Assembly: GCA_014896235.1 (NCBI GenBank)
Contig: JADBKU010000001.1
Location: 69,594 to 133,593 of the forward strand
Length of the DNA: 64,000 bases
From: a bacterium
GTDB taxonomy: Bacteria; Desulfobacterota; Binatia; Binatales; Binataceae
Reading direction: 5' to 3'
In this document: positions 21,724 through 49,524 of the stretch, one piece after another
Layout of the letters: every line of letters starts with the position of its first letter
Position numbering within the stretch: position 1 is the first letter of the stretch
Made by a program: the position numbers and the translations under genes
The notes under the pieces: generated by a model
The model's database searches: none
Seen by the model: only the letters and a program-made list of their open reading frames with translations
Told to the model about the DNA's origin: nothing

Positions 21724-21750
21724 ACCGTTCATTTGCGAGGAGGCGCGAGG

Positions 21751-22959
21751 ATGGCCAAGGCAGCGCTGGACGATTTGAAGGTCGTCGAATACGCCGAGAT
21801 GGTCTCGGGGCCGATGTGCGGCAAGATGTTCGCCGACCTTGGCGCCGAGGTGGTCAAGCTTGAGCCGCCGGGATGCGGCGACGAAGCGCGGCGCCATCCG
21901 CCGTACCCCGGCGACGAACCGCATCCGGAGAAAAGCGCCTTCTTCGGCTATTTGAACACGGGCAAGAAGAGCGTCACGCTGAATCCGGCGACGGCGAGCG
22001 GCGCGGAGATTTTCCGCAAACTGATCGCGGACGCCGACGTGTTGATCGAAAACTATCCGGTTGGCCATCTGGCGCGGCTCGGACTGGGCTACGAGGCGTT
22101 GAGCGCGATCAATCCGCGGCTGGTGATGGCCTCGGTTTCGCCGTTCGGGCAGACCGGGCCGTATCGCGATTGGAAGGGCACGGACCTGATCGAGTGGGCG
22201 ATGAGCCTGACCGGCTATAACACGCCCACGCTGGTCGATGACGGCGAGCGCGAGAATCCGCTGCGCGCGCCGGGCCATCCGGCGGAAATGATGGGAGCGG
22301 CGAACGCGGCGGCGGCGGCGATGGTCGCGTTGGCGGCGCGCGACGCGACCGGGCGCGGCCAGTGGATCGACGCGCCGTGCTGGCAGGCGACGGCGAACAC
22401 GGCGAAGCTAGAGATGGCGGCGTACTCATACGTGGGGATTCCGTTCAGCCGCTTGCGTGCGAACGTGCAGGTGGGATTGGAGCCGCTGCCGTGCCGCGAC
22501 GGCTATATCTATACGCTGTGGGCGGCCGAGGCGCATTGGCGGGCGCTCAAGCAGTTGTTGGGAAATCCGCCCGAGCTGGAGAACGAGATTTTCGACGACC
22601 TTGCCGGCCGGCACGAGAACGACGATATCCTGCGCACGCTGATTCGCGCGGAACTGGCCAAGCACGACATGGATTACCTGGTGACGGAGGGGCAGCGGCT
22701 GGGCCTGACGATCGGCCCGGTGCATACGGTGGAGCAGGCCGCCAACCATCCGCATCTTGCGGCGCGCGGGGCGTTCGTCGAGATCGCGCATCCGATCGCC
22801 GGGCCGATACGGATGCCGCGGGCGCTGGTGCGGATGACGGCGACGCCGCCGCAATCGCGCCGGGCGCCGATGCTGGGGGAGCATAACGGCGAAATTTTCG
22901 GGCGGCTTGGAATCGACGCCGAGGCGCAGGCGGGATTGCGCGCGGCGGGCGTGATATAG
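21751..22959 (+). CDS. family III CoA-transferase (CaiB/BaiF/Frc type)
   Basis: Start at MAKAAL (ATG 21751, GAGGAGG SD). LDDLKVVEYAEMVSGPMCGKMFADLGAEVVKLEPP is the hallmark N-terminus. Confidence 0.85.
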   Translation: MAKAALDDLKVVEYAEMVSGPMCGKMFADLGAEVVKLEPPGCGDEARRHPPYPGDEPHPEKSAFFGYLNTGKKSVTLNPATASGAEIFRKLIADADVLIENYPVGHLARLGLGYEALSAINPRLVMASVSPFGQTGPYRDWKGTDLIEWAMSLTGYNTPTLVDDGERENPLRAPGHPAEMMGAANAAAAAMVALAARDATGRGQWIDAPCWQATANTAKLEMAAYSYVGIPFSRLRANVQVGLEPLPCRDGYIYTLWAAEAHWRALKQLLGNPPELENEIFDDLAGRHENDDILRTLIRAELAKHDMDYLVTEGQRLGLTIGPVHTVEQAANHPHLAARGAFVEIAHPIAGPIRMPRALVRMTATPPQSRRAPMLGEHNGEIFGRLGIDAEAQAGLRAAGVI

Positions 22960-22988
22960 GCCGCGCGGGAACGGAGGGGACGTTCAAG

Positions 22989-24209
22989 ATGGGACGGCTG
23001 CCGCTGGCAGGACTGAGAGTCGCGGACTTCAGTTGGATTATCAACGGGCCGCAAATCGCGCAGTGGTTCGCGACGATGGGCGCCGAGGTAATCAAGATCG
23101 AGTCGCAGACCTATATCGATATCGGGCGGACGAATCCGGCGGGGATGGCGGATCGGAAGCCGGGGTTGAACCGGAGCGGTTTTTATCACGCGCTGAATTA
23201 CGGCAAGAAAGCGATCAATCTCAACCTGAAGCATCCGAAGGGACGCGAGCTGGCGCACGAAATAATCCGGCGCAGCGATTTCGTGCTCGAATGTTTTCCG
23301 CGCGCGACGGCGGAAGGCTTGGGCCTCACTTACGACGAGATGCGCAAAGTGAAGCCGGACATAATCATGATTTCGGTTTCGCTGCTGGGAAAAGAGGGGC
23401 TGGAACCGTCGCGATGGGTGGGATGGGGACCGATGGCGTGCGCGTTCGTCGGGCTGTTCGACGCGCAGGGCTACGCGGGCGGGCCGCCGCGCCAGACCGG
23501 CGGCACTTGGCCGGACTACGCGGTCGCTTCGACGGTGGTGTTTCATGCGCTCGCCGCGCTCAGGCATCGCAACCGCACCGGCGAGGGGCAGTGGATCGAC
23601 GCGAGCATGGGCGAGACGGTGATCGGGCAGATGCATGAATGGTTCACCGACTACTTCATGAACGGGCGCGATCGGCGGCAGTGGGAGAATCGCGACGACG
23701 TGATGGCTCCGCACAACACTTATCCATGTCGCGGGGAGGACAAGTGGATCGCGATCGCGGTCGGTAACGACGAACAATGGGCGGCGCTGCGCAGCGTCAT
23801 GGGCGATCCGGAGTGGGCGCGCGACGCGAAGTTCGCCGATCAATACGGCCGCTGGAAGAACCGCGACGCGATCGACGCGCGGATGCGCGAGTTCACGCGC
23901 ATGCGCGACCATCTGCAACTTGCGGCGGAGCTGCAAAAGGCGGGGGTCCCGGCCGGCCCGGTGCTCGACAGCGTCGAGCTGCATCAGGACCCCCATCTGT
24001 GGGAATGGGGCTACTGGTGGAAGATGGACCATCACGAAGTCGGCGAGCGGATTTTGCCGGGGATGCCGGTGAAACTGAGCGGCGTGGAGAAATTCAACTA
24101 TTCGTATCCGCCGGACCTGGGACAGCATAACCGCGAAATTTTCGGCGGACTGCTGGGGCTGTCGGACGCGGAGATAAAAATCCTGATGGAGGAAAAGGTC
24201 ATCTACTGA
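22989..24209 (+). CDS. family III CoA-transferase (CaiB/BaiF type), second paralog
   Basis: LAGLRVADFSWIINGPQIAQWFATMGAEVIKIE…. Its stop overlaps the start of the thiolase-like gene. Confidence 0.85.
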   Translation: MGRLPLAGLRVADFSWIINGPQIAQWFATMGAEVIKIESQTYIDIGRTNPAGMADRKPGLNRSGFYHALNYGKKAINLNLKHPKGRELAHEIIRRSDFVLECFPRATAEGLGLTYDEMRKVKPDIIMISVSLLGKEGLEPSRWVGWGPMACAFVGLFDAQGYAGGPPRQTGGTWPDYAVASTVVFHALAALRHRNRTGEGQWIDASMGETVIGQMHEWFTDYFMNGRDRRQWENRDDVMAPHNTYPCRGEDKWIAIAVGNDEQWAALRSVMGDPEWARDAKFADQYGRWKNRDAIDARMREFTRMRDHLQLAAELQKAGVPAGPVLDSVELHQDPHLWEWGYWWKMDHHEVGERILPGMPVKLSGVEKFNYSYPPDLGQHNREIFGGLLGLSDAEIKILMEEKVIY

Positions 24210-25393
24210 TGGACACGCTCAAGGACAAGGCTTGCATCGTGGGCGTGGGCGAAAGCGCCTTCACACGCGGATCGGGCAAGACCGAACTGAGGCTGATGCT
24301 GGAGGCGTCGCTCGCGGCGATCGGCGACGCGGGATTAAAGCCGCACGATATTGACGGCATCGTCGGACCGCCGATCGGATCGGTTGCGGAGCATTTCGCG
24401 GCGAATCTCGGCATCGAGGATTTGCGCTTCGCAACGACGGTGCACATGGGCGGCGCGAGTCCGGTGGTGTCGCTGCAGGCGGCGGCGATGGCGATCGCGG
24501 GCGGAGTCGCGACGAACGTCCTGATTCCGCTGGGCTGGAACGGCTATTCGTCGAATCCGGTGCGGGGCGGCGGCGCGCGCGCCGAGACCGGCGAAAAGCC
24601 GATGCCCGAACCGAACCCGATGATGAACACGATCGGCGCGTTCTATTTGCCGTACGGCGCGACCGTGCCGGTGCAGTGGTACGCGTGGCTGGCGACCCGG
24701 CATAAGCATCTGTACGGCACGCCATTCGAGACGATGGGCGCGATCGCGGTGAACGGCCGCGCCAACGCGCATCTGAACGAAAAGGCGATGATGCGCGGCC
24801 GGCCGCTGACGATGGACGACTATCTGGCGGCGCGCTGGGTGTCGTATCCATTCCGGCTCTACGATTGTTGCCTCGAAACCGACGCGGCCGGCGCGGTGGT
24901 GGTGACGTCGGCGGAGCGGGCGCGCGACTTGAAGCATCCGCCGGTCTATATTTCCGGCGTCGCCGAGGGCCATCCGTATCCCGCCGACGACATCCCGGCG
25001 CGTCCCGATCCGTTCGTGATCGGGCTGAGCTTCGCGGCGCCCAAGGCGTTTGCGATGGCGGGCGTGACGCACAAGGACATCGATTTTTTAGAGGTGTACG
25101 ACTGCTTCACTTACGTCGTGATGCTGCAGATCGAGGCGATGGGTTTCTGCAAACGCGGCGAAATCAAGGATTTCATCACGCCGGAGCGCATCCGTCTGGG
25201 CGGCGAGCTTCCGCTCAATACGCACGGCGGCCTGCTGTCCGAGGCGCACGTCTGGGGCATCAATCACATCATTGAGGCGGCGCGGCAGTTGCGTCATCAG
25301 TGCGGTCCGCGCCAGGTCAAGGACGCGGAAATCGGGCTGGTGACGGGATGGGGCGATTTCGGCGACGGCGGATTGGCGATTCTCAGGAGATAG
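24209..25393 (+). CDS. thiolase-like protein (SCP-x/nonspecific lipid-transfer-type, DUF35-partnered)
   Basis: MDTLKDKACIVGVGESAFTRGSGKTELRLMLEA… thiolase fold without the classical biosynthetic thiolase signature. Followed by a DUF35 gene. Confidence 0.8.
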   Translation: MDTLKDKACIVGVGESAFTRGSGKTELRLMLEASLAAIGDAGLKPHDIDGIVGPPIGSVAEHFAANLGIEDLRFATTVHMGGASPVVSLQAAAMAIAGGVATNVLIPLGWNGYSSNPVRGGGARAETGEKPMPEPNPMMNTIGAFYLPYGATVPVQWYAWLATRHKHLYGTPFETMGAIAVNGRANAHLNEKAMMRGRPLTMDDYLAARWVSYPFRLYDCCLETDAAGAVVVTSAERARDLKHPPVYISGVAEGHPYPADDIPARPDPFVIGLSFAAPKAFAMAGVTHKDIDFLEVYDCFTYVVMLQIEAMGFCKRGEIKDFITPERIRLGGELPLNTHGGLLSEAHVWGINHIIEAARQLRHQCGPRQVKDAEIGLVTGWGDFGDGGLAILRR

Positions 25394-25399
25394 GGCGCG

Positions 25400-25816
25400 A
25401 TGGCCGACAAAATGTACAAATTGCCGACGCCGCGAGTCGGCGGATATTCGGCGGAGTTCTACAAATATTGCAGGGATCACGAACTGCGCTTTCAGCGTTG
25501 CACCGGATGCGGCGCGTGGCGCCACATTCCGCGCGACATGTGCGCGAAATGCGGATCGTTCGAGTTTGAATGGGCGCGCTCGAAGGGCCGCGGCAAAGTG
25601 TTTTCGTGGACGACCGCGCGTCAGCCGATGATGGCGCAATTCGCCGCGCACATTCCGTACAGTCCGGTGATCGTCGAGCTCGACGAAGGCGTCAGGATGG
25701 TGACGTGGCTGACCGACGTAAAGCCGGAAGAGCTCGAGCTAGGCATGCCGGTCGAGGTGGTTTTCGACGACGTGACGCCCGAGGTGTCCCTGCCGAAATT
25801 CCGGCGCGTGGCGTGA
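25400..25816 (+). CDS. DUF35 Zn-ribbon/OB-fold protein (partner of SCP-x-type thiolases)
   Basis: CTGCGAWRHIPRDMCAKCGS zinc ribbon followed by an OB-fold; 138 aa. Confidence 0.8.
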   Translation: MADKMYKLPTPRVGGYSAEFYKYCRDHELRFQRCTGCGAWRHIPRDMCAKCGSFEFEWARSKGRGKVFSWTTARQPMMAQFAAHIPYSPVIVELDEGVRMVTWLTDVKPEELELGMPVEVVFDDVTPEVSLPKFRRVA

Positions 25817-26819: not shown

Positions 26820-27710
26820 TTAGTTTTTAGCCTTCCTGACTGGTTGAGAACCGAAGAACAGGAAAAAGTTCGTCGGCACGTCGCCGATCACGTCGCCGGA
26901 TTTCTGCGCCGCTCGCAGCGCCCTGACCGAGGTGATGCCGCTGGAGCCGTCGGCGCTGGGCCAATCGGCCTCATTGGTCACCAGTTCAGTCACGACCTGC
27001 CACCACACCGGCCGGCGCTGGAACGCGTCCGTATTGATCACGTGGCTGTGATTCGGCGTGGGCGTGAAGATGTTGGTGTTTGCGGGGACTGCGCCCTTGG
27101 TGAGGATATGCAGGGCGGGGCCGAGATCGAGTCGCGACGCATGCATCGTGCAGCTTCCCGGCGGATCGCCCGGCGCCGGACATTGTACGGCCACGGCGGG
27201 ATTCTGCTTGTACGCTTCGGGGATCGTTCCGAACAGGCTGATCAGCGCGTTGCCCAAATCGGCGCCGCAGAGCGTGACCGGCAGGTTCGGATTCATGCCC
27301 GGATTTTCGTTTGGATCGTTGTACGGATTATTCGTGTTGTCGCAGGCGATCGCGTCGTTCGGGTTGGTGTCTTTGACGCCGTTATGATCGAACATCGGCA
27401 CCAGAACGTAGAGCTTGTCGGTGCTTTGTATTTTGGCGCCGGTGGGATCGCGCGGCGGTTCGTCGGTGACCTGGCAGATCGGAATTTGCAGTTCCGCCGG
27501 GTCCGACTCGGCCGGCACATTGTTGAAGTTGAGGTCGTCGGTCGGCTGCTCCACGCAATCGTAATTTTCGGTATACGTGAAGATGAAAGGCCTGCCGAAG
27601 GCGAAAGCCGCCGTCTGGTTGGGCGCGAGAGACTGCGCTCCCGCGCCGCCGGCCGCCGCGATCAGGCCGATCGCCGCGCCCGCGATTGCCGCTCCAAGTT
27701 TTTGTCGCAT
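26820..27710 (-). CDS. secreted Cys/Asn/Pro-rich hypothetical protein
   Basis: Signal peptide MRQKLGAAIAGAAIGLIAAAGGAGAQS, at least 8 Cys, N/P/D-rich segments. Lies between the deacetylase and rcnA-like genes on the same strand. Confidence 0.45.
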   Translation of the reverse strand: MRQKLGAAIAGAAIGLIAAAGGAGAQSLAPNQTAAFAFGRPFIFTYTENYDCVEQPTDDLNFNNVPAESDPAELQIPICQVTDEPPRDPTGAKIQSTDKLYVLVPMFDHNGVKDTNPNDAIACDNTNNPYNDPNENPGMNPNLPVTLCGADLGNALISLFGTIPEAYKQNPAVAVQCPAPGDPPGSCTMHASRLDLGPALHILTKGAVPANTNIFTPTPNHSHVINTDAFQRRPVWWQVVTELVTNEADWPSADGSSGITSVRALRAAQKSGDVIGDVPTNFFLFFGSQPVRKAKN

Positions 27711-27789
27711 ACGCTCCTCCGATTCTCCGGCTTGGAATTTGCCGGTCATCGGATATACGGAGCGGCGCAACCTTTGGATCGCGCGGAGG

Positions 27790-28635
27790 TTATTTTTCCG
27801 GCGGAGGATTATTGCGCCGGAATTCCTCCGCGGCTTCGCGCATAGTGGCGAACCGCACTCCGGCCCGCATCCGCATCTGTTCGACCAGCCGCTCGAGCAT
27901 CAGCAAGCGATGGCCCCTGCCGATCGATTGGGGATGCATCGTCAAAATATAAACGCCCTCGCCCAGCCGGTCGTATAAATATTCGAAATCGCCCCACCAG
28001 ATTTCGAACATCCGCGACGGCGCGGCGAGACCGGGATTCACGCCGTTGCGCGTCCACACGTGTTCGAAGGCGGGGAAATCGTCCAGCCCCCAGGTGAATG
28101 GCAATTCGACCATCGATGTTGGCTTGCCCCATACGAAGGGTCCATCGGCCGGCGCTTGATCGCCGACCCGGCAATAGTAGGGCGTGAAATCGTCGCCCAT
28201 CATGCTGCTGTCGTAAAGAAAGCCGCGCTCGCGAAGACATTCGAGCGTCGATGGCATCAGGCCCGCCGCCGGCGAGCGGTAGCCGACGGGAACCTGGCCG
28301 GTGACGCGTTTGAGCGCGGCGGTCGCGCGATCGAAATCGCGCGCTTCCTCCTCGCGCGACGGCGGACGATCGTGAAAATATCCGTGATGTCCGATTTCAT
28401 GGCCCGCGGCCGCGATTTTTTCGACCGTGGCGGGAAAGGCGTCCGCGGTATGGCCGGGTATGAACCAGGTCGATTTGATTCCCCATTCGCCGAGCATCCG
28501 CAGCAGGCGTTCACTGCCGACGCGGCCGAATTCGCCGCGCGAAATCGCGCTGGGCGATTTCGCATGGAAAGTTCCGACCCAGACCGAAATCGCGTCGAAA
28601 TCGAAACTCAGACATACGGTGACGTTCTTTTTCAT
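27790..28635 (-). CDS. polysaccharide deacetylase (NodB-homology/CE4) family protein
   Basis: TVCLSFDFDAISVW…WFIPGHTADAFP…AAGHEIGHHGYFHD are the NodB motifs. Confidence 0.8.
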   Translation of the reverse strand: MKKNVTVCLSFDFDAISVWVGTFHAKSPSAISRGEFGRVGSERLLRMLGEWGIKSTWFIPGHTADAFPATVEKIAAAGHEIGHHGYFHDRPPSREEEARDFDRATAALKRVTGQVPVGYRSPAAGLMPSTLECLRERGFLYDSSMMGDDFTPYYCRVGDQAPADGPFVWGKPTSMVELPFTWGLDDFPAFEHVWTRNGVNPGLAAPSRMFEIWWGDFEYLYDRLGEGVYILTMHPQSIGRGHRLLMLERLVEQMRMRAGVRFATMREAAEEFRRNNPPPEK

Positions 28636-29198: not shown

Positions 29199-30227
29199 TT
29201 GAAATTTCAGCCAATGCGTTCCAGCAGATTTACGATCATAGCGGCCGCAGCCGCCTGCCTCCTGACGGTGGCGGCGACTGCGATTACCGCTGACAGCGCT
29301 ACTGAAGGCGTCAAGCGCACTTCAGCGCCTTCGTGGCTCAGTCTGTTCGGCGTGGCGATTCGTCCTGACAACGAGATCCTCGTCGTCGGCTCGAAGGCGC
29401 TGCTGTTGACTTCGACCGATCAGGGCAAAACCTGGATTCAGCGCACGATGCAGGAACGTCCCGGCGGACGGCTGTTCCAGGATCGCGACCTCTACTCGAT
29501 CCGTTTCGATTCGTCCGGCAAGTCCGGATGGGTCGTCGGCGAGGAGGGGATCATCCTGCATACGACCGACGGCGGCGACACCTGGAGCTTGCAGAAGAGC
29601 GGAACCACGAAGAACCTGTTCAAAATCGCCGTAATCGACGACAAGAACGTGGTGGTCGTGGGGGCCGACGGCACGATTCTCCGCACCGCCGATGGCGGCG
29701 ACACTTGGCAGTCGATCAAATCGCCGAAGAACGTGACCTGGTTTGACGTCACCTTCACCGATCCGCAGCACGGATGGATGGTGGGCGAATTCTCCACCAT
29801 TCTCGCCTCCACGGACGGCGGGCAGACTTGGACGCTCAATTACGGCGGCAATACGGGAGATTTCACGATCGGGCCGTTCTTTACGGTGACTTTCACTGAT
29901 CCCCAGCACGGAGTCGTCGCTGGTCTTGCGGGCGACACCGCAGTTACCAGCGACGGGGGCAAGACCTGGCAGAAGCAGAAGTTGCCCGATCCTGTGGCCA
30001 GCTATGTGGTTGCGGAAGATCCGGCGTCGAAGGCGCTTTGGGCCGGCGGCGCGGGCGGACGGATGTTCGAGCAGGTCGCCGGAGGCGAATGGAAGCCCTC
30101 CGATCGGGCGACCTTTCATGATTTGACGGATTTGGCGTTCGCAGGAAAACTCGGCGTCGCGGTTGGTCTAAACGGCACCATTCTGCTGACGGATAATGCG
30201 GGAGAGCAATGGCAAGCAGTTCAGTAA
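29199..30227 (+). CDS. secreted Ycf48-like BNR/Asp-box beta-propeller protein
   Basis: Signal peptide, then repeated S/TxDGGxTW Asp-box blades (TDQGKTW, TDGGDTW ×2, TDGGQTW, SDGGKTW). TTG start 29199 (alternative ATG 29214). Its stop overlaps the RND gene start. Confidence 0.75.
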   Translation: MKFQPMRSSRFTIIAAAAACLLTVAATAITADSATEGVKRTSAPSWLSLFGVAIRPDNEILVVGSKALLLTSTDQGKTWIQRTMQERPGGRLFQDRDLYSIRFDSSGKSGWVVGEEGIILHTTDGGDTWSLQKSGTTKNLFKIAVIDDKNVVVVGADGTILRTADGGDTWQSIKSPKNVTWFDVTFTDPQHGWMVGEFSTILASTDGGQTWTLNYGGNTGDFTIGPFFTVTFTDPQHGVVAGLAGDTAVTSDGGKTWQKQKLPDPVASYVVAEDPASKALWAGGAGGRMFEQVAGGEWKPSDRATFHDLTDLAFAGKLGVAVGLNGTILLTDNAGEQWQAVQ

Positions 30228-32635
30228 AAATGACCTCCCTGCGGATCGGCGATTTCGTCGTCCGCAACAGGGCCATCGTCGGTGCAATCCTGCTGATTAT
30301 CAGCGCCTTTTTCGGCTACGAGTGCACCAAGGTTGTCGTTCAAACCAAGTTTGACGACTTTTTCCCGAGCTATCATCACGACGTGCAGCTCTATCAGGAG
30401 TGGCACAAGTACGGCGGCGCGCAGACGCTCGCCGTGATGGTTCAGGTCAAGCATGGCGATATTTTCAATTTCGACACGCTGAAGAAGATTCAGGAAATTC
30501 AGCGCGACGTCGACAAGCTGCCGGGCGTTGACCACAACGAAGTGCTGTCGCTCGCTTCCTATCGCGTCAGCTACGCGGAAGCGACGCCAGGATCGCTGAC
30601 GATCAAGCCCTTCATGTTTCCGGAAGTGCCGAAGGACGCCGCTGGAATCGAGGCTCTGAAGAAGACCGTTCAGGCCAACCAAGCGAACATTTCGCAGTTG
30701 GTCAGTTCCGACTTGACCAGCGCTCTGGTAACCGCCTCATTCAACGAGCGCGGCTTGGACTACAAAAAGCTCTTCTACCAGGTTCAGGATATCGTCAAGC
30801 AGTATCAGGACGATAACAACCGCATCTATATAGCAGGCGAGCCGATCGTTCGCGGCTATGGCTATTACTACGAACCGACCGTCCTGGTGCTGTTCCTGAT
30901 CGCGGTCGCCGTGATGATCTTCATCCTGTGGATTACCGGCAGCCAGCGCAGCCGATGGTGGGCGCCGATCGTCACCGGCTTCTTGTCGGCCATCTGGGGC
31001 CTCGGCTTCGTTGGCCTGATGGGTTACGACTTCGATCCGGTCATGCTGGTCATACCATTCATCCTGACCGCGCGCGACATGTCGCACGGTATTCAGTGGC
31101 AGGGTCGGCTGCATGACGAACTCGACCGGTTGGGCGACAAGCTGGCGGCTTGCGCGGCCACGACCGACTTCATGTTGCCGCCGGGATTGCTGTCGATTCT
31201 GGCCGACATCAGCGGCATCATCTTCATCTCGTTCGGCGGCATCCCCGTCCTGCAACATATCGCGCTGGCCGGCACGGTATGGCTCGCCGGCAGTCTCACG
31301 ATGGTCTTCATCTTCCAGCCCATCCTGATGAGCTATCTGCCGACGCCTGAAATCAAGCATCGCAAGCAGCGGGAAGGATCGGGCGCGCGGAGCGCGGTTC
31401 GCGAATTCCTCGACTGGTTCGTGCACGTTCCGACTCGTCCGGGCGCCTTGCGCAAGGTTCTGCTTTGGGGGTCGTGCGGGTTTCTGGTTTATGGCGTAAT
31501 TTCCGGCTTGGATTGCAAAATCGGTTATTCGACCGCCGGCACGCCGCTCTACAAGAACAACTCAAAGGTCAACAAGGACATTCTGGCGGTCGGGAAAAAG
31601 TTCCCACTCGAAGAGGGCTGGGTGATCCTGACGACTCCTTCCTATCCCGACAAGCAATCCGTGCTGGGACCCGGAGTGCTGCGGATGGTCGACGATATGC
31701 GCGCCTACCTGTTTGAAGATCCAAAGGTTGCGCAGGTCGTCTCTTTCTCATCGACGGTGTCGGAACCGTTCAATGAGATGTTCCACTACGGCTATCCGAA
31801 ATATCTGGCTGTGCCGGATTCGATCGAGATGTCGGGCAACCTGTGGTTTCTGTATTTGAACGGATCGGCGCCGGGCGAATTGGAGCGCTTTATCTCGAAT
31901 CGCTCCAATAACGACACCTGTATCCGGGTGCTCCTGCGCGACCACAACTACGACACGCTCGAGAACATCCGCGAGCGGATCAAACGGTTCGTTGACGAGA
32001 GGGTCTCGCCGGATCCGTCGCTGAACAAAGTGCATGTCGATTATCTGGCCGGAATCGCGGGTCTCTATCTCTCGGCCAACGACGTCTTGAAGCAACTAGA
32101 TTTCTACAACATCACATTCGTGCTGGGCGTGGTGTGGGTATTTTGTCTGTTTTCGTTCCGCTCGTTCGTCGCGGCGTTCATGTTCCTGTTCGCCTGCGTT
32201 CTGGCCAACTTCGGCGCTTTCATTTACATGAATGCGCGCGATATCGGCCTGACGATCGATACGATACCGGTCATCTCGCTGGGTATCGGACTCGGAGTCG
32301 ATTACGGAATTTACATGGTCGCCCGAATCCGCGACGAGGTCATGGGCGGAATGGATGTCGATGACGCGATCGTGCTTGCGCTGCAGAGCACCGGCGTCGC
32401 GGTGTTCAACACGTTCCTCGTCATGATCGGCGGCATTTTCCCGTGGATTTTCTCGCCGCTGCTGTTCCACAACGAGATGAGCACGCTGCTGATCTTCCTG
32501 ATGGGCACGAACATGATCGCCGGCTGCATCATCCTGCCGTGTTATCTGTCGTGGGCGCGTCCGAGTTTCGTGTTCGGCGGCCGAGGCGCGATGAAGGAGC
32601 GCGAAAAGCCGAGCGCGACTGCCGCGGCTTCATGA
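30209..32635 (+). CDS. RND-superfamily exporter (MMPL/HpnN-like, 12-TM with two periplasmic loops)
   Basis: 808 aa with two 6-TM bundles (…LVLFLIAVAVMIFILWITGS…, …FVLGVVWVFCLFSFRSF…), each preceded by a large soluble loop. Overlaps the Ycf48-like gene end. Confidence 0.85.
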   Translation: MASSSVKMTSLRIGDFVVRNRAIVGAILLIISAFFGYECTKVVVQTKFDDFFPSYHHDVQLYQEWHKYGGAQTLAVMVQVKHGDIFNFDTLKKIQEIQRDVDKLPGVDHNEVLSLASYRVSYAEATPGSLTIKPFMFPEVPKDAAGIEALKKTVQANQANISQLVSSDLTSALVTASFNERGLDYKKLFYQVQDIVKQYQDDNNRIYIAGEPIVRGYGYYYEPTVLVLFLIAVAVMIFILWITGSQRSRWWAPIVTGFLSAIWGLGFVGLMGYDFDPVMLVIPFILTARDMSHGIQWQGRLHDELDRLGDKLAACAATTDFMLPPGLLSILADISGIIFISFGGIPVLQHIALAGTVWLAGSLTMVFIFQPILMSYLPTPEIKHRKQREGSGARSAVREFLDWFVHVPTRPGALRKVLLWGSCGFLVYGVISGLDCKIGYSTAGTPLYKNNSKVNKDILAVGKKFPLEEGWVILTTPSYPDKQSVLGPGVLRMVDDMRAYLFEDPKVAQVVSFSSTVSEPFNEMFHYGYPKYLAVPDSIEMSGNLWFLYLNGSAPGELERFISNRSNNDTCIRVLLRDHNYDTLENIRERIKRFVDERVSPDPSLNKVHVDYLAGIAGLYLSANDVLKQLDFYNITFVLGVVWVFCLFSFRSFVAAFMFLFACVLANFGAFIYMNARDIGLTIDTIPVISLGIGLGVDYGIYMVARIRDEVMGGMDVDDAIVLALQSTGVAVFNTFLVMIGGIFPWIFSPLLFHNEMSTLLIFLMGTNMIAGCIILPCYLSWARPSFVFGGRGAMKEREKPSATAAAS

Positions 32636-32710
32636 CCGCAAACCCGGCCGCGAGACGATCGGCTGAATCGGCATGATTTGCCGCTAAGCCCATATCTTTC
32701 CGACTAAGCC

Positions 32711-32747
32711 AACGTGGCGGACGCCAAAAGCGCCCGCCACGTTTTTT
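32711..32747 (+). terminator. rho-independent terminator after the RND exporter gene
   Basis: AACGTGGCGGACGC-caaaa-GCGCCCGCCACGTT (14-bp stem, 1 mismatch) followed by TTTTTT. Confidence 0.6.
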
Positions 32748-32794
32748 ATCGTGCGCGGCGGCGCTTTAGTTGTCCGAACGGACGGATCTCGGGA

Positions 32795-32826
32795 TTTCGG
32801 ACTTTCCCCGGATTAATGGTTATAAT
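32795..32826 (+). promoter_or_regulatory. promoter candidate for the tandem lipoprotein genes (perfect -10)
   Basis: TATAAT at 32821-32826 downstream of the terminator. The -35 is weak (TTTCGG/TTCGGA). About 150-nt leader before ATG 32980. Confidence 0.3.
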
Positions 32827-32979
32827 CATCCGCAGACCGCAAATCCGGAGCCTAGGCGTGAACAAACCGACCATTTTTGAAGTTTTCGCCCGAATTTATC
32901 GTCAATTATAGGGATTTCGACCCGGCTTACGCGGTTGGGCTTCGAGTCGGATGGCGAAAGGCGCGGGAGAACCACGTTC

Positions 32980-33825
32980 ATGATGCGAAAGCTGATTCTA
33001 CTGACAGTTGCAGGATTCACGGCCGTGCTATTCGTCGCGTGCCAAAAGCAGCCTCGGGCGACATTCGACCCCCGAAGTGCGAGCGAATTTTTTCCGCTTC
33101 CGCCCAAAGCCGTCTGGACGTACAAAGTTGACAGCAAAAGCCAGCATACGACTTATGTGGTCACGGATACGGTGGTGGGGCAGAAATATGTCCCGGCGCT
33201 GAATGTCACCGGGATGGTGGTCGAGGAATATTACAACCTCGATCGCGGCGGCGTGCGGCCGATCGTCTATACCAGCCACAACGGCTATCTCGATCGTCTG
33301 TCCGGGCTGGCCTACCAAAAGCAAGATATCGAAGCGCCGGCGTGGGGCCGTTCAGAAGAAGGCGAATTCATGCCGAAACTGCTTGCGCCCAATCTGGACT
33401 GGAGTAGCAAGATCTATCCCTTCGGCCACATTTCGGGGGCTTTCGACATTAGTCAAACTCATCACACCTATTTTGAACCCGAAGCGATCGTGGTGCCGGC
33501 GGGAAGTTTCCTCGGATGCATTCGCATAGATTCCGACGCGAGATATGAGGGTGGAACCTACGCGCAGAAGGGAAACAAGAATCTTAAATTGACCTACCGC
33601 GATTGGTACGCGCCGAACGTCGGCCTGATCAAGACAGTCGTGCTGGAAGGCGGGCCAGGCGGCTCGGAGATGGAGCACGTGGAATTGCTGCGCTACTCGA
33701 TTCCGTCCGCAGCGGGCGGCGCCACCGGCGCGGCGGACAATCGGGGAGCGCCGAGCGTTGGCAATTCGGCCGCTGATGCGCCACAATCGGCGAAATCGCC
33801 CGCGGTCTCGGCCAAAACCAACTAA
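32980..33825 (+). CDS. lipoprotein of unknown function, paralog A
   Basis: Start at MMRKLILLTVAGFTAVLFVAC (lipobox-like FVAC). About 50% identical to the downstream paralog (shared WTY+VDSKSQHT.YV.TD.VVG..YVPAL…LKLTY.DWYAPNVGLIKT). Disordered A/G/S/P tail. Confidence 0.6.
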   Translation: MMRKLILLTVAGFTAVLFVACQKQPRATFDPRSASEFFPLPPKAVWTYKVDSKSQHTTYVVTDTVVGQKYVPALNVTGMVVEEYYNLDRGGVRPIVYTSHNGYLDRLSGLAYQKQDIEAPAWGRSEEGEFMPKLLAPNLDWSSKIYPFGHISGAFDISQTHHTYFEPEAIVVPAGSFLGCIRIDSDARYEGGTYAQKGNKNLKLTYRDWYAPNVGLIKTVVLEGGPGGSEMEHVELLRYSIPSAAGGATGAADNRGAPSVGNSAADAPQSAKSPAVSAKTN

Positions 33826-33952
33826 GACCGAAAAATTCGGGCGACAACTGCTGTTTTCGGCATCGGGGACCGGCAGCGTTCAATCGCCGCCGGTAAGCTG
33901 GAACGGCATTGCTCTCGCGCCATGGGAATGGCGCGAATGGGGGACAATAGCG

Positions 33953-34780
33953 ATGCGCGATTGGTTTGCGGCGGCCGGTCTGGCCGCGCTCGTGACCATT
34001 GCGGCGGCCTGCAGCAGGCCTGTGCCAGCCAAAATCGATCTCCACGCCAACTTCTTTCCGCTCAAGACCGACATGACGTGGACCTACCGGATAGACAGCA
34101 AGAGCCAGCACACCTCCTATGTCATCACCGACCGCGTGGTTGGAAGCCAATACGTGCCCGCACTCAAATTGACGGGTTTGGTGGTCGCGGAATTTTACAA
34201 TTTGGATCGCGCCGGCCTGCGCCCGATTGTGTATGTCGACGACTCAGGATATCTGACGCGATTGTCGGGACTGGATTACGACAAGCATCGCATAATCACG
34301 CCCGCATGGGGGAAGTCGGAAGAAGACGATTTCCTGCCAGCGCATCTGGCGCCCAATTTGGCTTGGAACAACGAACTTTTTCCGTACGGCAAACTTCCGG
34401 GCGGATTCGAAATTGTGCAGAGCCACAAGAGTTTCGGCGAACCGGCCGACGTTGCCGTACCGGCGGGGCATTTCACCGGATGCATTCGGATCGAAACGCG
34501 GGCGCGCTATCAAGGCGGCGCGTATGCCGAATCGAAACAACAACTTAAACTGACCTACGAAGATTGGTACGCGCCGAATGTCGGCTTAATCAAAACGATC
34601 GCGTTTCAGGGCGGTCCCGACGGCCCGGAGATGGAGCGAGTCGAATTGATGAGATTCGACGTTGCTTCCAAAGGGGACCAGTTCACGCAAGCTCAGGGAA
34701 TCCGACCGGCGGCGAACCGGCCGCAGGCGAGCGCAGGGGCCTCAGCGCCCAAGGCGCAGAAGCGGGCGATCGCCGGATAA
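33953..34780 (+). CDS. lipoprotein of unknown function, paralog B
   Basis: Start at MRDWFAAAGLAALVTIAAAC (lipobox). Same conserved core as paralog A. The track ORF starts at 33758, but the signal peptide begins at ATG 33953. Confidence 0.6.
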   Translation: MRDWFAAAGLAALVTIAAACSRPVPAKIDLHANFFPLKTDMTWTYRIDSKSQHTSYVITDRVVGSQYVPALKLTGLVVAEFYNLDRAGLRPIVYVDDSGYLTRLSGLDYDKHRIITPAWGKSEEDDFLPAHLAPNLAWNNELFPYGKLPGGFEIVQSHKSFGEPADVAVPAGHFTGCIRIETRARYQGGAYAESKQQLKLTYEDWYAPNVGLIKTIAFQGGPDGPEMERVELMRFDVASKGDQFTQAQGIRPAANRPQASAGASAPKAQKRAIAG

Positions 34781-34934: not shown

Positions 34935-35531
34935 TTAGCCGTTTGGAGGCGGCGCTGGCATCGAAACCGTCGGCGAACCTGGTCCGAACAACGGCTGGCC
35001 TTTTTGGTGGACGTAGTTGATCGCCACCGCGTCGATATAGAACCCGTTGTGTCCGGCTTCGCCGATGCGCCGGGTATGTTCGGCCTCCTGAATGTAATCG
35101 GCCGACGTCGCGTAAGCGTTTTTCTCGGTTGTTTCCGTCATCTGTTCGTTGGGCGAGGCGCGATAGAGCAGATTCTTGATATCTTGATGCTTGCTGTTGA
35201 TGATGACGAGGGCGTCGGCGCCGGTTTCGCAGGCTTTGCGCTGGAGAGCCGGCATGACGTCGGCTTGAGCGTCGCGTTCGTCGGCCCAGGCTTCAACGAT
35301 CGCGACCTGCTTGAACTGCGTCAGCGGCATTCTGTCGAGCAGCGGCATATTGCAAGTCGGCGGCTTGGCGGCGCGATTGTACGGCGCTATCTGCGTAAGC
35401 TCGACTTGAAGCGGCTGCTTCTGTGCGGCGCATCCGGCGACCATCGTGAGCGCTAGAATCAAGCCGGTCGTAGTTCGAAACGACCCGCTTACGCGACGGT
35501 GGGCGAGGCTGACCATACTCGTGATTTCCAT
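34935..35531 (-). CDS. lipoprotein, hypothetical
   Basis: Signal plus lipobox (LILALTMVAGCAA). No recognisable family. Pro-rich C-terminus. Confidence 0.45.
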   Translation of the reverse strand: MEITSMVSLAHRRVSGSFRTTTGLILALTMVAGCAAQKQPLQVELTQIAPYNRAAKPPTCNMPLLDRMPLTQFKQVAIVEAWADERDAQADVMPALQRKACETGADALVIINSKHQDIKNLLYRASPNEQMTETTEKNAYATSADYIQEAEHTRRIGEAGHNGFYIDAVAINYVHQKGQPLFGPGSPTVSMPAPPPNG

Positions 35532-35679: not shown

Positions 35680-36534
35680 ATGAGGCGCGCCGCGCGAATT
35701 CTGCTGAGCTTATGGCTGGCGGGCGCAATGACGCTTGCTCAAGCATGCGCCGGACCAGCCAGCAGTGCACGCGATTACGGTTCCGGCGCGTCCAGGGTCG
35801 GCTCCAATGCGGCGGCAAGCTCCACGCGGCCGTCATCCGCGCCCGGCAGCGCGCCGAATATGAACGGCATGGTGGTCGATAAGGACGCAAGCTTGGCATT
35901 GACCGCCCATTTTCAGCGCAATCGCCTGCCGCTGGTCGGAGCGCAAGTCTTGCGGAATCCGTCGACCGGCCAACGGGCCGTCGTGCTTTACGGATACGTC
36001 GCGACCGATCGCGGAAAATCTGACGCACAGCGGCAAGCCGAAGACTACATCAATGATCCCGAAGTGGACGTGGAAAACCGAGTCGTCGTCGATCCGCAAC
36101 TGATGGCATCGAGCGGTTCCGGCGGGCCGGGCACGGCTGGCGCTAATAATTCGACCGCTGGCTACTACGATCCGAATTCCGCACAATCCGCGAACTCAAC
36201 GCCCGGAACGCAGAGCTATTACGACCAGCAAAACCAGTCCGCACAGATTCAGCAGTATCAGCAATACCAACAGCCGAGCGCACAAAGCATAAACTCGATC
36301 GCGCCATTGATCGCGTTGCTTGGAATTTTGAGCGCGGGGATGGCCGCGAGCGGCCCGGGAGGGTTCGGAGTTGGGCCGGGCTATCCTTCGCCGTATGGCT
36401 ATTCTGGCGCTTATCCGCCCTATGGCGGATTTCCGGCGCCGATCGCGCCGATGGCCCCCGTGGCGCCGATGTCGCCGTTCGGCTACGGGGGATCGCCGTT
36501 TGGCTTTAGCGGTCCTTTTTCAACTTTTCCCTGA
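35680..36534 (+). CDS. secreted BON-domain-like protein with Q/N/Y-rich low-complexity region, a hydrophobic segment and a G/Y/P-rich tail
   Basis: Signal peptide, then a BON-like segment (LVGAQVLRNPSTGQRAVVLYGYVATDRGKSDAQRQAEDYI…VENRVVVD), then QQYQQYQQ, then IAPLIALLGILSAGMAA, then a GYPSPYGYSGAYPPYGGF… tail. Confidence 0.55.
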   Translation: MRRAARILLSLWLAGAMTLAQACAGPASSARDYGSGASRVGSNAAASSTRPSSAPGSAPNMNGMVVDKDASLALTAHFQRNRLPLVGAQVLRNPSTGQRAVVLYGYVATDRGKSDAQRQAEDYINDPEVDVENRVVVDPQLMASSGSGGPGTAGANNSTAGYYDPNSAQSANSTPGTQSYYDQQNQSAQIQQYQQYQQPSAQSINSIAPLIALLGILSAGMAASGPGGFGVGPGYPSPYGYSGAYPPYGGFPAPIAPMAPVAPMSPFGYGGSPFGFSGPFSTFP

Positions 36535-46503: not shown

Positions 46504-49500
46504 ATGAGGTTTCTGCGCGTACTGCTGGCGATCGTTCTGGTCATCGTGATTTTGGCTGGAGTCGCCGTCGTGGTCGCGTTTCACAATCAGCCGACGCTTG
46601 TCGCCGTGGTCCTCGCGCGCATCAACGCCGGAACCGGGCTCGAAATTCGGCCGGCGCGGACCCGATTGAGATTCGGTGGCCATCTTGACGTCCTGCTCGA
46701 GCGGCCGACGGTCTATTTTCACGGCCGTGAAGTGGCGCGCCTCGAAGACCTTCGCGCGATCGTGAATTATCACGCGATTTTCGCGGGCAACGGCTTGCCG
46801 CTGCATTCGCTTGAACTCGATCGCCCAATAGTTCAGATGCCGGCGAACGCCGCTGGGGTTACTCCGCATGGATTGCCCAAACCCGATGTGGAAGCGGCTG
46901 ACAACCTGCTCGCCGCGCTCGATGCGATCGGCGATGTCACCTATCGCGTCGAAGTGCATGGCGCGCAATTGCACGACGTGAATTCCACGCCTTTGATCGA
47001 CTACTTCACCGTCGTCGCTCGCAAGGAACATCGCCGTTCCGGACGTTTGCCGTGGCTGCTCGAATTTGACGCGCATTGGGCTCACGCGCCCTTCGCCGGG
47101 CTCGGCGTTTCGGGGAATGTGCGCCTGGGCGCGGAACCCGGCCAGGACGTTGGATCGATCATGGACGGCAGGGTGGTTTTCCGCGGTCTTGCATTGAGCG
47201 GGTTTGAGGGACCGGCGGGTTTAAAGGCGACTGGATCGGCCGCCGGCTTTATCCGATTCTCCATGGCGCGCAACGGAGTAGTGACCGGCGCCGAAGATGC
47301 CGATTTTACGAAACTGGCTGTTTCCGGCCCTCCACTGGCCGCGCCGATCATTTTTGGGGACTGCGCGCTGCGGTCAAGGTTCAGCGCATCCGCGACGCGC
47401 ATGCAATTGAGCGAAATTGAGGTCTCGAAGGGCCAATCGGTGGTGATTGCTGGCGCGCTGGAAATCGGCGCTCCTTATGACCCCGATCGGACGATCAGCC
47501 TGAGCGTGGGCGACGGCAAGTTCGCGATCGCGGACGTTGCGGCTCAAGTACGCCATCTCCGCGCGATTCCATCATGGCTCAGTGCGGCGCTGGCCCGGCT
47601 GACTTCGGGCCAAGTGCGATTGATCGAAGCATCGCTCGATTCAACCGTGCCGTTGCGCAAGTGGAACGCGCTTACGATTCGTGACGATCTGTCGCTTAAG
47701 GCGTCGGTCGCCGGAGCCGGATACGATTCGCCTGCCAGCTCAGGATTGCCTGCCGTACGCCGCGTGTCGGCGACGGTCATTTACAACCGCGGGAAGCTGA
47801 CGGTCAGCGATGCTTCCGGTTATTTCGGCGACTCGAACTTAAAAAAAATCGACGGCGAAGCCCAATTTCGCGACGCCCCGCGTGAGATTTTCTACCGTTT
47901 GCGGGTGAGCGCCAAACTCAACGCGGGCGAAATTTTCGCGCTGGCGGCGCCGCTGCTCGCATCGCGCGGACCTGCATGGGCAAATCGATTGCAGGGCGCC
48001 AGAGGCGCCGCGAACATTTCCGGCCGCATCGCCGGGCGCGTGACGAATTCGCGATTGCTCGCGCCTGGCGAATATTCATTCGACGTTTCGCCCGAACGGT
48101 TGGGTTTGAAGATTCGCGGCGCGCCCACGCAAGTCGATCTTAATGACGGCGTGATCGCCGTACGCCCGGACGAGCTGCAGATTAAGAACCTGATCGTGTC
48201 GCCCGCGCTTTCCGGCGGCGGCAACCTGATGCTTGGCGGCGCGGTCAGACCGGGCGCGCCGTATCCTCGGTTCGAAAATCTTGTCGTCGAGGCGCATCGG
48301 ATTCGCGCCGAACGCTGGATGCCGCTGTTCGTCGACCAAAATCAGATGAACGTTCGCGGACCCATCAGCGGCAGACTGAATATCAACAGCGATTCGTCGA
48401 ATAATCGCGCGCCGACTGTCACCGGCAATTTGACGATGGGTTCCGGCGAATTGGGCTTCGGTTTCCTGCGATCGCCGATCATGGTGAATGCCGCGACGGT
48501 CGCCCTGAATGGAACCGGTTTGGAGCTCGACATCCCGAATGCGACGCTTGAAGGAAAGCCGATCGACTTGAACACGAAAGTCGCGGATCTGGCGAATCCC
48601 AAAGTCGAAATTGACGCGAACGCGGAAGATTTCGATTTCGAAGCGTTGAAGTTTATCCGCATGCCATGGTCGCCGAAAGCTAAAGTCACAGTTTTCCCGC
48701 TGCCGGTGTTTGGGCATCTGAAAGCGCAGCACGCGAAGTTCGGAAACCTGATGATGACGAATATGGCCACGGATTTTGAAAGAGGCGGCGGCCACTGGCG
48801 CGTCTATAATTTTGTCTCGCGGGCGCTGGGCGGTCGCGCACGATTGTCGGTTTCCGGCCTCACGGGACCAGACAACTGGATTCATATTGTCGGACGCGGC
48901 GTGCAAATGGACGCGGCGCAAATTTTCCTGCTTTCCGGGAATCGCAAGCCGGCCATTGTGGGAAAGCTGGGAACGACGCTCGATATTTGGGCCGACACGG
49001 ACGTGGATTTTTTTTCCTCGATGTACGGCAAGATTGGGATCGAGGCGACCAACGGAACGCTTAACCGATTCGCATTGATCAGCCGTATTCTGAGCTTCAT
49101 CGATGTTAAAAACTGGCTGACCGCGCGCCTGCCGGATCCTGACGCGTCCGGCATACCGTTCACCAAATTAAGTTGCGACGCGAACGGCATGAACGGGATT
49201 TTCGAGACCAAAAATTTCAAATTGCGCGGCCCCGTCATGGAAATTACGGCTACCGGCTCGGTGGACGCCGGCAACGACGTCATGAACATGCACGTGGCGT
49301 TGATGCCGTTCGATTCGTTCAATTGGCTCGTCGCCCATATTCCATTTATCGGCCGGAATTTGGCCACCGGCAGCAAAGGGCTCGTCGCGGCCTATTTTCA
49401 CGTGTACGGGCCGATAAATGATCCCACAGTCGTGCCGCAGCCGATCACATCGGTCGCCGAGTTTATCGCCAAGACGCTCAGCCTGCCGATAAATTTAATC

Positions 49501-49524
49501 GCGCCTAATACGATTAAGCCGTGA
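46504..49524 (+). CDS. AsmA-family giant envelope protein (AsmA/TamB/YhdP-like)
   Basis: 1006 aa. Single N-terminal TM (LRVLLAIVLVIVILAGVAVVVAF) followed by a long beta-rich periplasmic region. Confidence 0.65.
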   Translation: MRFLRVLLAIVLVIVILAGVAVVVAFHNQPTLVAVVLARINAGTGLEIRPARTRLRFGGHLDVLLERPTVYFHGREVARLEDLRAIVNYHAIFAGNGLPLHSLELDRPIVQMPANAAGVTPHGLPKPDVEAADNLLAALDAIGDVTYRVEVHGAQLHDVNSTPLIDYFTVVARKEHRRSGRLPWLLEFDAHWAHAPFAGLGVSGNVRLGAEPGQDVGSIMDGRVVFRGLALSGFEGPAGLKATGSAAGFIRFSMARNGVVTGAEDADFTKLAVSGPPLAAPIIFGDCALRSRFSASATRMQLSEIEVSKGQSVVIAGALEIGAPYDPDRTISLSVGDGKFAIADVAAQVRHLRAIPSWLSAALARLTSGQVRLIEASLDSTVPLRKWNALTIRDDLSLKASVAGAGYDSPASSGLPAVRRVSATVIYNRGKLTVSDASGYFGDSNLKKIDGEAQFRDAPREIFYRLRVSAKLNAGEIFALAAPLLASRGPAWANRLQGARGAANISGRIAGRVTNSRLLAPGEYSFDVSPERLGLKIRGAPTQVDLNDGVIAVRPDELQIKNLIVSPALSGGGNLMLGGAVRPGAPYPRFENLVVEAHRIRAERWMPLFVDQNQMNVRGPISGRLNINSDSSNNRAPTVTGNLTMGSGELGFGFLRSPIMVNAATVALNGTGLELDIPNATLEGKPIDLNTKVADLANPKVEIDANAEDFDFEALKFIRMPWSPKAKVTVFPLPVFGHLKAQHAKFGNLMMTNMATDFERGGGHWRVYNFVSRALGGRARLSVSGLTGPDNWIHIVGRGVQMDAAQIFLLSGNRKPAIVGKLGTTLDIWADTDVDFFSSMYGKIGIEATNGTLNRFALISRILSFIDVKNWLTARLPDPDASGIPFTKLSCDANGMNGIFETKNFKLRGPVMEITATGSVDAGNDVMNMHVALMPFDSFNWLVAHIPFIGRNLATGSKGLVAAYFHVYGPINDPTVVPQPITSVAEFIAKTLSLPINLIAPNTIKP

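Follow-up and report, generated by a model that had tools for sequence, protein, structure and literature searches.

DUF3108-like lipoproteins as a probable component of an AmeABCD-type propeller and transporter system in Candidatus Binataceae

Envelope transport systems composed of a DUF1302 protein, a DUF1329 protein, a Ycf48-like BNR propeller (COG4447) and a resistance-nodulation-division (RND) transporter (COG1033) are widespread in Proteobacteria and have clear phenotypes; their mechanism is unsolved and the direction of transport is debated. AmeABCD of Castellaniella defragrans was linked to monoterpene tolerance (PMC6394551). In Shewanella, Kangiella and Pseudomonas the four genes show cofitness, and the export of a cell-wall component was proposed (10.1101/072470). 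Pseudomonas putida needed the system to grow on Tween 20 and butyl stearate, and DUF1302 and DUF1329 were suggested to act as esterases (10.1101/2020.07.04.188060). AlphaFold co-folding predicted DUF1329-BNR-RND and DUF1302-DUF1329 complexes (PMC10866462, PMC13499233). Here we analysed a 64-kb stretch (64,000 nucleotides (nt), hereafter the window) of contig JADBKU010000001.1, from a metagenome-assembled genome (MAG) of Candidatus Binataceae, in which a BNR gene and an RND gene are followed by two lipoprotein genes, LipC and LipD. It is well supported that the BNR-RND pair is the Binataceae version of an AmeABCD-type envelope transport system for hydrophobic compounds. Judging from gene context, the two DUF3108-like lipoproteins are probably a component of this Ycf48-like/HAE3 RND system. 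The four-gene system itself is already known, and it is the lipoprotein that is new here: no mention of it in this system was found in the literature, and the five papers that name DUF3108 in their full text concern other topics.

The features of the locus are as follows.

29199-30227, forward strand: BNR gene, 342 amino acids (aa), secreted Ycf48-like (COG4447) BNR/Asp-box beta-propeller
30209-32635, forward strand: RND gene, 808 aa, HAE3/MMPL-type inner-membrane transporter
32713-32749, forward strand: terminator-like hairpin with T run, end of the BNR-RND operon
32821-32826, forward strand: TATAAT box, candidate -10 element for the lipoprotein genes
32980-33825, forward strand: LipC (clade C), 281 aa, DUF3108-like beta-barrel, lipobox FVAC
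33953-34780, forward strand: LipD (clade D), 275 aa, LipC paralogue, lipobox AAAC

The propeller and transporter pair and its closest described relatives

The BNR protein starts with a signal-like hydrophobic segment and matched PF14870 PSII_BNR (3e-33) and the Ycf48 structures 2XBG/5OJP (1e-26). Its score against the photosystem II equivalog model NF010237 was 120 bits, far under the 326-bit cut-off, and its host lineage is non-photosynthetic, as are the Binataceae relatives; it was thus not assigned as an equivalog of the Ycf48/HCF136 photosystem II assembly factor. With the YCF48-related protein encoded in the Aromatoleum cluster, the identity was 29%. The window protein was closer to the BNR neighbours of two distant lipoprotein relatives described below (P0277/P0281; 34-35% identity) than to this canonical proteobacterial one.

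The RND protein matched PF03176 MMPL above its cut-off (5e-16) and TIGR00921 HAE3 with an E-value of 1e-29, the latter score of 103 bits being under the 352-bit subfamily cut-off. Its hydropathy profile showed 1+5/1+5 transmembrane segments (12 in total) with two loops of ∼180-200 aa. Its similarity to mycobacterial MmpL and to HpnN consists of membership in the RND superfamily, short periplasmic loops and the PF03176 match. Matches to the MmpL5/4/3 structures in the PDB were restricted to the C-terminal transmembrane half (residues 570-780), and the scores were 57.6 bits for TIGR00833 (actII/MmpL; cut-off of 874.7) and 19.8 bits for TIGR03480 (HpnN; cut-off of 751.9). Because these two scores are far under the cut-offs and the structural coverage is partial, the RND protein is not an MmpL or HpnN orthologue.

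The closest annotated RND relatives, 28.6% identical across the entire length, are encoded in clusters with the order YCF48-related, MMPL, DUF1302 and DUF1329, on plasmid 2 of Aromatoleum aromaticum EbN1 and on plasmid RPME01 of Methylibium PM1; the alignment with the MMPL transporter of the EbN1 cluster covered 98% of the length. As in these clusters, the Ycf48-like propeller gene of the window lies directly upstream of the HAE3-type RND gene and in the same orientation, and the RND start sits inside the BNR open reading frame (ORF) with a 19-nt overlap. Adjacent, co-oriented propeller and RND genes were found in at least 19 Binataceae species loci. That the two genes form one operon is well supported. 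A preliminary description of the window, made from its sequence alone, had named the DUF1302/DUF1329/BNR/RND type of cluster, which indeed fits the BNR-RND pair. The locus differs from the Ame type in that neither DUF1302 nor DUF1329 is found within the window, and in that Binataceae carry one or two separately transcribed DUF3108-like lipoproteins downstream of BNR-RND. The plasmid clusters of Aromatoleum and Methylibium lie beside thiolase, OB-fold and beta-oxidation genes (Aromatoleum: L123 1-5618), and similar acyl-CoA genes are found upstream of the locus in the window: the region 21733-25816 of the forward strand encodes two family III CoA-transferases, a thiolase-like protein and a ChsH2-type Zn-ribbon/OB-fold protein.

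Gene linkage of the lipoproteins within and beyond Binataceae

The search with window proteins covered 29 Binataceae species-representative loci, two of which were truncated, leaving 27 informative ones. BNR followed by RND was found upstream of the lipoprotein gene in 21 of the 27. In 18 loci the RND gene is directly followed by the lipoprotein gene and a polysaccharide deacetylase (PDA) gene points away from the BNR gene, whereas in the other three (L016, L030 and L033) a gene for a 625-660-aa protein, here called u625, is inserted between RND and lipoprotein. Some Binataceae relatives add system components: DUF1329 lies directly upstream of BNR in the order DUF1329, BNR, RND, lipoprotein in L024 and L025, L010 and L020 carry DUF1329 within 4-8 kb, and a DUF1302-like barrel, u625, may occur downstream. 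The slot after BNR-RND, which is occupied by DUF1302 and DUF1329 in the canonical clusters, is taken by the lipoprotein, with or without a preceding u625, in Binataceae.

The u625 proteins start with a signal peptide, and their C-terminus is porin-like, ending with ...QYNFNLL. They gave no match to Pfam even at an E-value of 10, but the motif region conserved in DUF1302 was recognised when they were compared with a bona fide member of that family (BLASTP 1e-9; hhalign 92%, 72 columns), and on the strength of this local motif u625 probably represents a divergent outer-membrane barrel of the DUF1302 type. The u625 genes lie at L033 1430-3307, L016 7474-9414, L030 5403-7265, L043 3677-5590, L086 5684-7627 and 7782-9755, and L001 2466-4394.

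The boundary between the transporter gene and the lipoprotein genes was inspected by sequence reading and folding. The terminator noted in the preliminary description after the RND gene was recovered as a hairpin ACGTGGCGG..CCGCCACG with a T6 run (32713-32749, -25.2 kcal/mol), although a simple terminator scanner gave no call for it. GC-rich hairpins whose sequence varies by species were present 15-100 nt 3' of the RND stop in most of ∼30 related loci, which suggests a conserved operon boundary at this position across Binataceae, and the lipoprotein gene would therefore have its own transcript in this family. The gap between RND and lipoprotein genes is 200-450 nt. Of the separate TATAAT promoter that had been proposed for the lipoprotein genes, the box at 32821-32826 is present and is kept in L011 and L005, the two closest relatives, where it reads TGGTTATAAT or TGGTTATACT; on the other side, no -35 hexamer was recognisable near it and the promoter scan upstream of LipC called no promoter. 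The box is a plausible promoter element of the lipoprotein genes.

All close lipoprotein homologues came from Candidatus Binataceae MAGs. In nearly all Binataceae loci the lipoprotein gene is followed by the genes of a further lipoprotein, lp198, and of a secreted protein, p284, which lie in the window as follows.

34935-35531, reverse strand: lp198, neighbouring conserved lipoprotein, lipobox VAGC; only putatively a member of the system
35680-36534, forward strand: p284, neighbouring conserved secreted protein with Q/Y/P/G-rich tail; only putatively a member of the system

Outside Binataceae, relatives with 26-40% identity to the window lipoproteins were sampled, around which the other synteny is gone (no matches to lp198 or p284), and nine lineages were informative; P0135, on a contig of 1 kb, was not among them. 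The most complete arrangement was that of P0128 (35% identity), whose gene table gives the order DUF1302, DUF1329, PSII_BNR, MMPL, two small ORFs and the lipoprotein. In P0185 (26%) the lipoprotein gene is located between BNR and DUF1302. In two further lineages, with gene identities assigned by Pfam, the lipoprotein gene directly follows DUF1329 (L104/L108/L110/L112/L114; 37%) or precedes it (L106/L107; 40%), and no propeller was found within the 5-10 kb covered. In P0277 and P0281 (a Myxococcales-labelled MAG; ∼30%), the order is BNR, lipoprotein, ABC_tran, ABC2_membrane, GldG-like and DUF4340, with the lipoprotein and ATPase genes overlapping in the P0277 locus; these ABC-2 clusters, at L119 8795-14262 (Myxococcales MAG JAPSFU010000002.1) and L117 8764-12041, contain no RND gene.

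Co-occurrence of the lipoprotein with BNR/RND systems had been named in advance as a check of their association, and the outcome agreed with it: a component of the system lies within three genes in ∼5 of the 9 informative non-Binataceae lineages. As the families of the system are rare per genome, chance linkage is very unlikely by a rough estimate. These gene neighbourhoods support the view that the lipoprotein is tied to the DUF1302/DUF1329/BNR/RND system in several independent lineages, beyond the synteny of Binataceae. They thereby lend support to the accessory lipoprotein suggested in the preliminary description, in which an envelope lipid as the substrate, its export and the carrier function are putative. 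Since in one lineage an ABC-2 transporter takes the place of the RND one beside the propeller and the lipoprotein, the propeller, and not the pump, seems to be the most frequently conserved partner of the lipoprotein.

Family, fold and gene starts of the lipoproteins

The four ORFs of the preliminary description were all present in the ORF list, with small corrections to the starts of the lipoproteins. The maximal lipoprotein ORFs extend over 32935-33825 (296 aa) and 33758-34780 (340 aa), but the true starts are most likely the internal ATGs at 32980 and 33953, as read from the GGGAG/GGGGA ribosome-binding sites in front of them. The resulting signal peptides end in FVAC|QKQP for LipC (MMRKL...; FVAC being residues 18-21) and in AAAC|SRPV for LipD (MRDWF...; AAAC being residues 17-20), and both were scored as lipoboxes by the pattern [LVI][ASTVI][GAS]C. 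The lipobox Cys was invariant in 79 homologues and conserved in at least 90% of the distant ones. LipC and LipD are 52% identical across 271 aa (E-value of 3e-101), in agreement with their earlier description as tandem paralogues. The duplication is old: across Binataceae, the first copies fall into one clade and the second copies into another, and genomes with a single copy retain either of them.

The lipoproteins had also been said to belong to no recognisable family, which was not borne out: both match PF21347 DUF3108_like, albeit below the threshold (22.3 bits for LipC and 19.5 bits for LipD, with a cut-off of 27). The PF21347 annotation was found on many of 214 close homologues, including many at 55-65% identity. 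A few close homologues carry the NCBI label 'TapB family protein', a name which probably derives from PF21347 and Porphyromonas gingivalis TapB; NCBIfam holds no model for the lipoproteins or for these homologues. P. gingivalis TapB is known only as a virulence-associated gene (PMC10470040), and DUF3108 was described as a YmcC-fold barrel linked to DUF3567/metH in Burkholderiales, with no function given (PMC4364669). The window lipoproteins differ from the known DUF3108 and DUF3108-like proteins (PF11306, PF21347; 4FVS BDI_3050, 3FZX BF2203) in that the identity is only 14-17%, the scores are under the Pfam cut-off, the subfamily has its own motifs, and the gene contexts reported for DUF3108 are different (PMC4364669).

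An AlphaFold2 (AF2) model of LipC built from 79 sequences gave a barrel with a predicted local distance difference test (pLDDT) value of 87 and a disordered C-terminal tail of ∼40 residues. Such tails, rich in Ala/Pro/Ser/Gly and predicted to be disordered (pLDDT <50), are encoded at the ends of both genes (33700-33825 and 34660-34780) and are absent from most homologues, which are 250-260 aa in length. A Foldseek search with the LipC model found 4FVS and 3FZX at an E-value of 1e-8, both being DUF3108 lipoproteins of Bacteroidales with a "YmcC-like fold", and the sequence profile of distant family members found the same two PDB entries at 2.4e-11 and 4.8e-8, respectively. The lipoproteins therefore share with 4FVS/3FZX both the YmcC-like barrel fold and homology at the profile level. 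Structure prediction, which had been suggested earlier as a test of a carrier function, returned a soluble-type beta-barrel like that of YmcC/DUF3108, which distantly resembles DUF1329, LolA/LolB, MucB/RseB and LmcA in structure. The closest folds are those of families binding lipids or the acyl chains of lipoproteins. No homology of the lipoproteins to a LolA-clan family was found by sequence or profile. The earlier analogy with mycobacterial MmpL exporters and LppX accordingly stands as a resemblance at the fold level, and nothing was found for it beyond that level.

By an HMMER search of 1.84 billion representatives (E<1e-3), the family of small lipoproteins comprises only 391 clusters. It has the common motifs FFPL..W.Y, VPAG.F..C.R and DWYAP.VGL, several near-invariant polar residues and one conserved Cys other than that of the lipobox. 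A catalytic Cys/His/Asp set was considered and dropped, as the candidate His varies in distant members; the idea of a cryptic DUF1329 was dropped likewise, with an hhalign probability of 0.2% between the family and DUF1329. A tblastn search with LipC against 72,556 plasmids gave no match.

Proposed role of LipC and LipD and alternative explanations

We consider it reasonably probable that the BNR-RND pair is an engine, and that LipC and LipD are accessory parts of the same pathway for hydrophobic compounds, docking to it and receiving or handing off the cargo. Observed are the gene content, the folds and the recurrent gene linkage; what the proposal infers is where the lipoproteins sit, what they contact, and which cargo moves in which direction. 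It is well supported that the BNR-RND operon encodes an inner-membrane, proton-motive-force-driven transporter of the HAE3 type together with a periplasmic Ycf48-like partner. LipC and LipD would be lipid-anchored soluble barrels on the periplasmic or outer-membrane side of the pathway. In E. coli, an Asp at position +2 bears on the membrane destination of a lipoprotein; neither LipC nor LipD has Asp at this position, and by the E. coli rule they are therefore probably anchored in the outer membrane, facing the periplasm. There they could dock with the propeller and/or with a DUF1329-type shuttle and serve as a membrane-anchored receiver or hand-off point for hydrophobic cargo, LolB-like opposite a LolA-like DUF1329. 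Where no DUF1329 is encoded nearby, they may substitute for it.

A recurrent lipoprotein partner, which is also paired with the propeller beside an ABC-2 transporter, offers a new handle on the passage of cargo across the periplasm. Part of the uncharacterised DUF3108-like ("TapB") family thereby gains its first functional context, and the little that is known about the envelope of uncultured Binatia is extended. The finding is an incremental lead resting on gene context, and it overturns nothing. A broader form of the proposal, which we put forward tentatively as possible though somewhat unlikely, is that the Ycf48-like propeller and the DUF3108-like lipoprotein make up an adaptor unit of the periplasm that is portable and was combined during evolution with different engines (HAE3 RND or ABC-2/GldG-type) and different outer partners (DUF1329, DUF1302). 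In it, the lipoprotein would be the membrane-anchored, LolB-like acceptor of a LolA/LolB-style relay that takes hydrophobic cargo across the periplasm, and hence a hitherto undescribed fifth component of a widespread envelope transport system.

Several observations weigh against the accessory role of the lipoproteins. Six of the 27 Binataceae loci retain lipoprotein, lp198 and p284 without BNR-RND within 8-10 kb upstream. In a sub-lineage of eight metagenome contigs, the PDA and lipoprotein genes diverge, lp198 follows in the reverse orientation and p284 is kept, while BNR-RND is cleanly missing from the locus. The whole block (PDA, BNR, RND, lipoprotein, lp198, p284, epoxide hydrolase and transketolase) is syntenic across the family, so that adjacency inside Binataceae alone is weak evidence, and the conserved terminator places the RND and lipoprotein genes in separate transcription units. 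Beyond the family, the neighbours of the lipoprotein are unrelated to the system in 4 of the 9 informative lineages (P0130, P0174, P0171 and the L098-L102 group). No DUF1302 was found in the window by tblastn with bona fide DUF1302 and u625, and tblastn found no DUF1329 there either, to which hhalign showed no sequence relationship of the lipoprotein family (0.2%). Finally, since the classical DUF3108 proteins of Burkholderiales are linked to other genes, the link to transport is a property of this subfamily and not of the whole superfamily.

Alternatively, LipC and LipD could be general envelope lipoproteins that adjoin BNR-RND as bystanders, through inheritance of the syntenic block as a unit in Binataceae, and whose real partners, if any, would be the invariably adjacent lp198 and p284, for example in a module for envelope stress or outer-membrane maintenance. 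The lipoprotein, lp198 and p284 are the most invariant trio, persisting where BNR-RND is absent, the terminator and the 200-450 nt gap set the lipoprotein genes apart from RND, and lp198 gives a weak hint of an RcsF/FvfA-like fold. That hint comes from a low-confidence model (pLDDT of 60), and the relatives with 26-40% identity, which have lost the other synteny, again adjoin BNR, DUF1329, DUF1302 or the full four-gene cluster. This explanation is therefore considered unlikely, and we prefer the accessory role in the transport pathway.

Two other explanations accept the gene linkage and assign a different function to the lipoprotein. It might merely tether or assemble the Ycf48-like propeller at the membrane, with any transporter, and never bind substrate. 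Cyanobacterial Ycf48, which works in assembly by docking on intermediates of membrane proteins, provides a precedent, and the propeller is the most frequently shared neighbour, being found in Binataceae, P0128, P0185 and the RND-less ABC-2 clusters (L117/L119). However, the two lineages that pair the lipoprotein with DUF1329 show no propeller in the region covered, and the barrel fold is nearest to lipid- or acyl-chain-binding families, which makes a pure tether quite unlikely. We regard it as very improbable that the lipoproteins are catabolic enzymes or uptake receptors which act on or capture external hydrophobic substrates such as fatty esters, with inward transport feeding the CoA-transferase/thiolase genes. 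RND pumps are known as exporters, the family hidden Markov model and fold searches gave no hydrolase fold or family match for the lipoproteins, and the candidate His varies in distant members. Consistent with such a function are the near-invariant polar residues and the conserved Cys outside the lipobox, the beta-oxidation-type genes found next to the cluster both in the window and on the Aromatoleum plasmid, and the requirement of the P. putida system on Tween 20 and butyl stearate together with the esterase role proposed for DUF1302/DUF1329 (10.1101/2020.07.04.188060).

Among the neighbouring genes, p284 gave no match to Pfam, and for lp198 the resemblance of its AF2 model (pLDDT of 60) to the RcsF/FvfA-like fold is a hint only. 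Two genes diverge from the BNR gene: the PDA gene at 27790-28635 (reverse strand), which keeps its position in most loci and in one sub-lineage lies immediately next to the lipoprotein gene, and sec316 at 26820-27770 (reverse strand), whose product is a secreted protein of 316 aa with no family assignment. An ORF of 1006 aa (46504-49524, forward strand), located some 12 kb downstream of the locus, showed a weak C-terminal YhdP/AsmA-like match (28.6 bits, with a cut-off of 46) and may encode a bridge-type lipid transporter. A soil metagenome contig of 6872 nt (L036; Ga0070737_10011876) encodes proteins 100% identical to those of the window, from the C-terminal half of RND through epoxide hydrolase, and by this identity it probably belongs to the same population as the source of the window.

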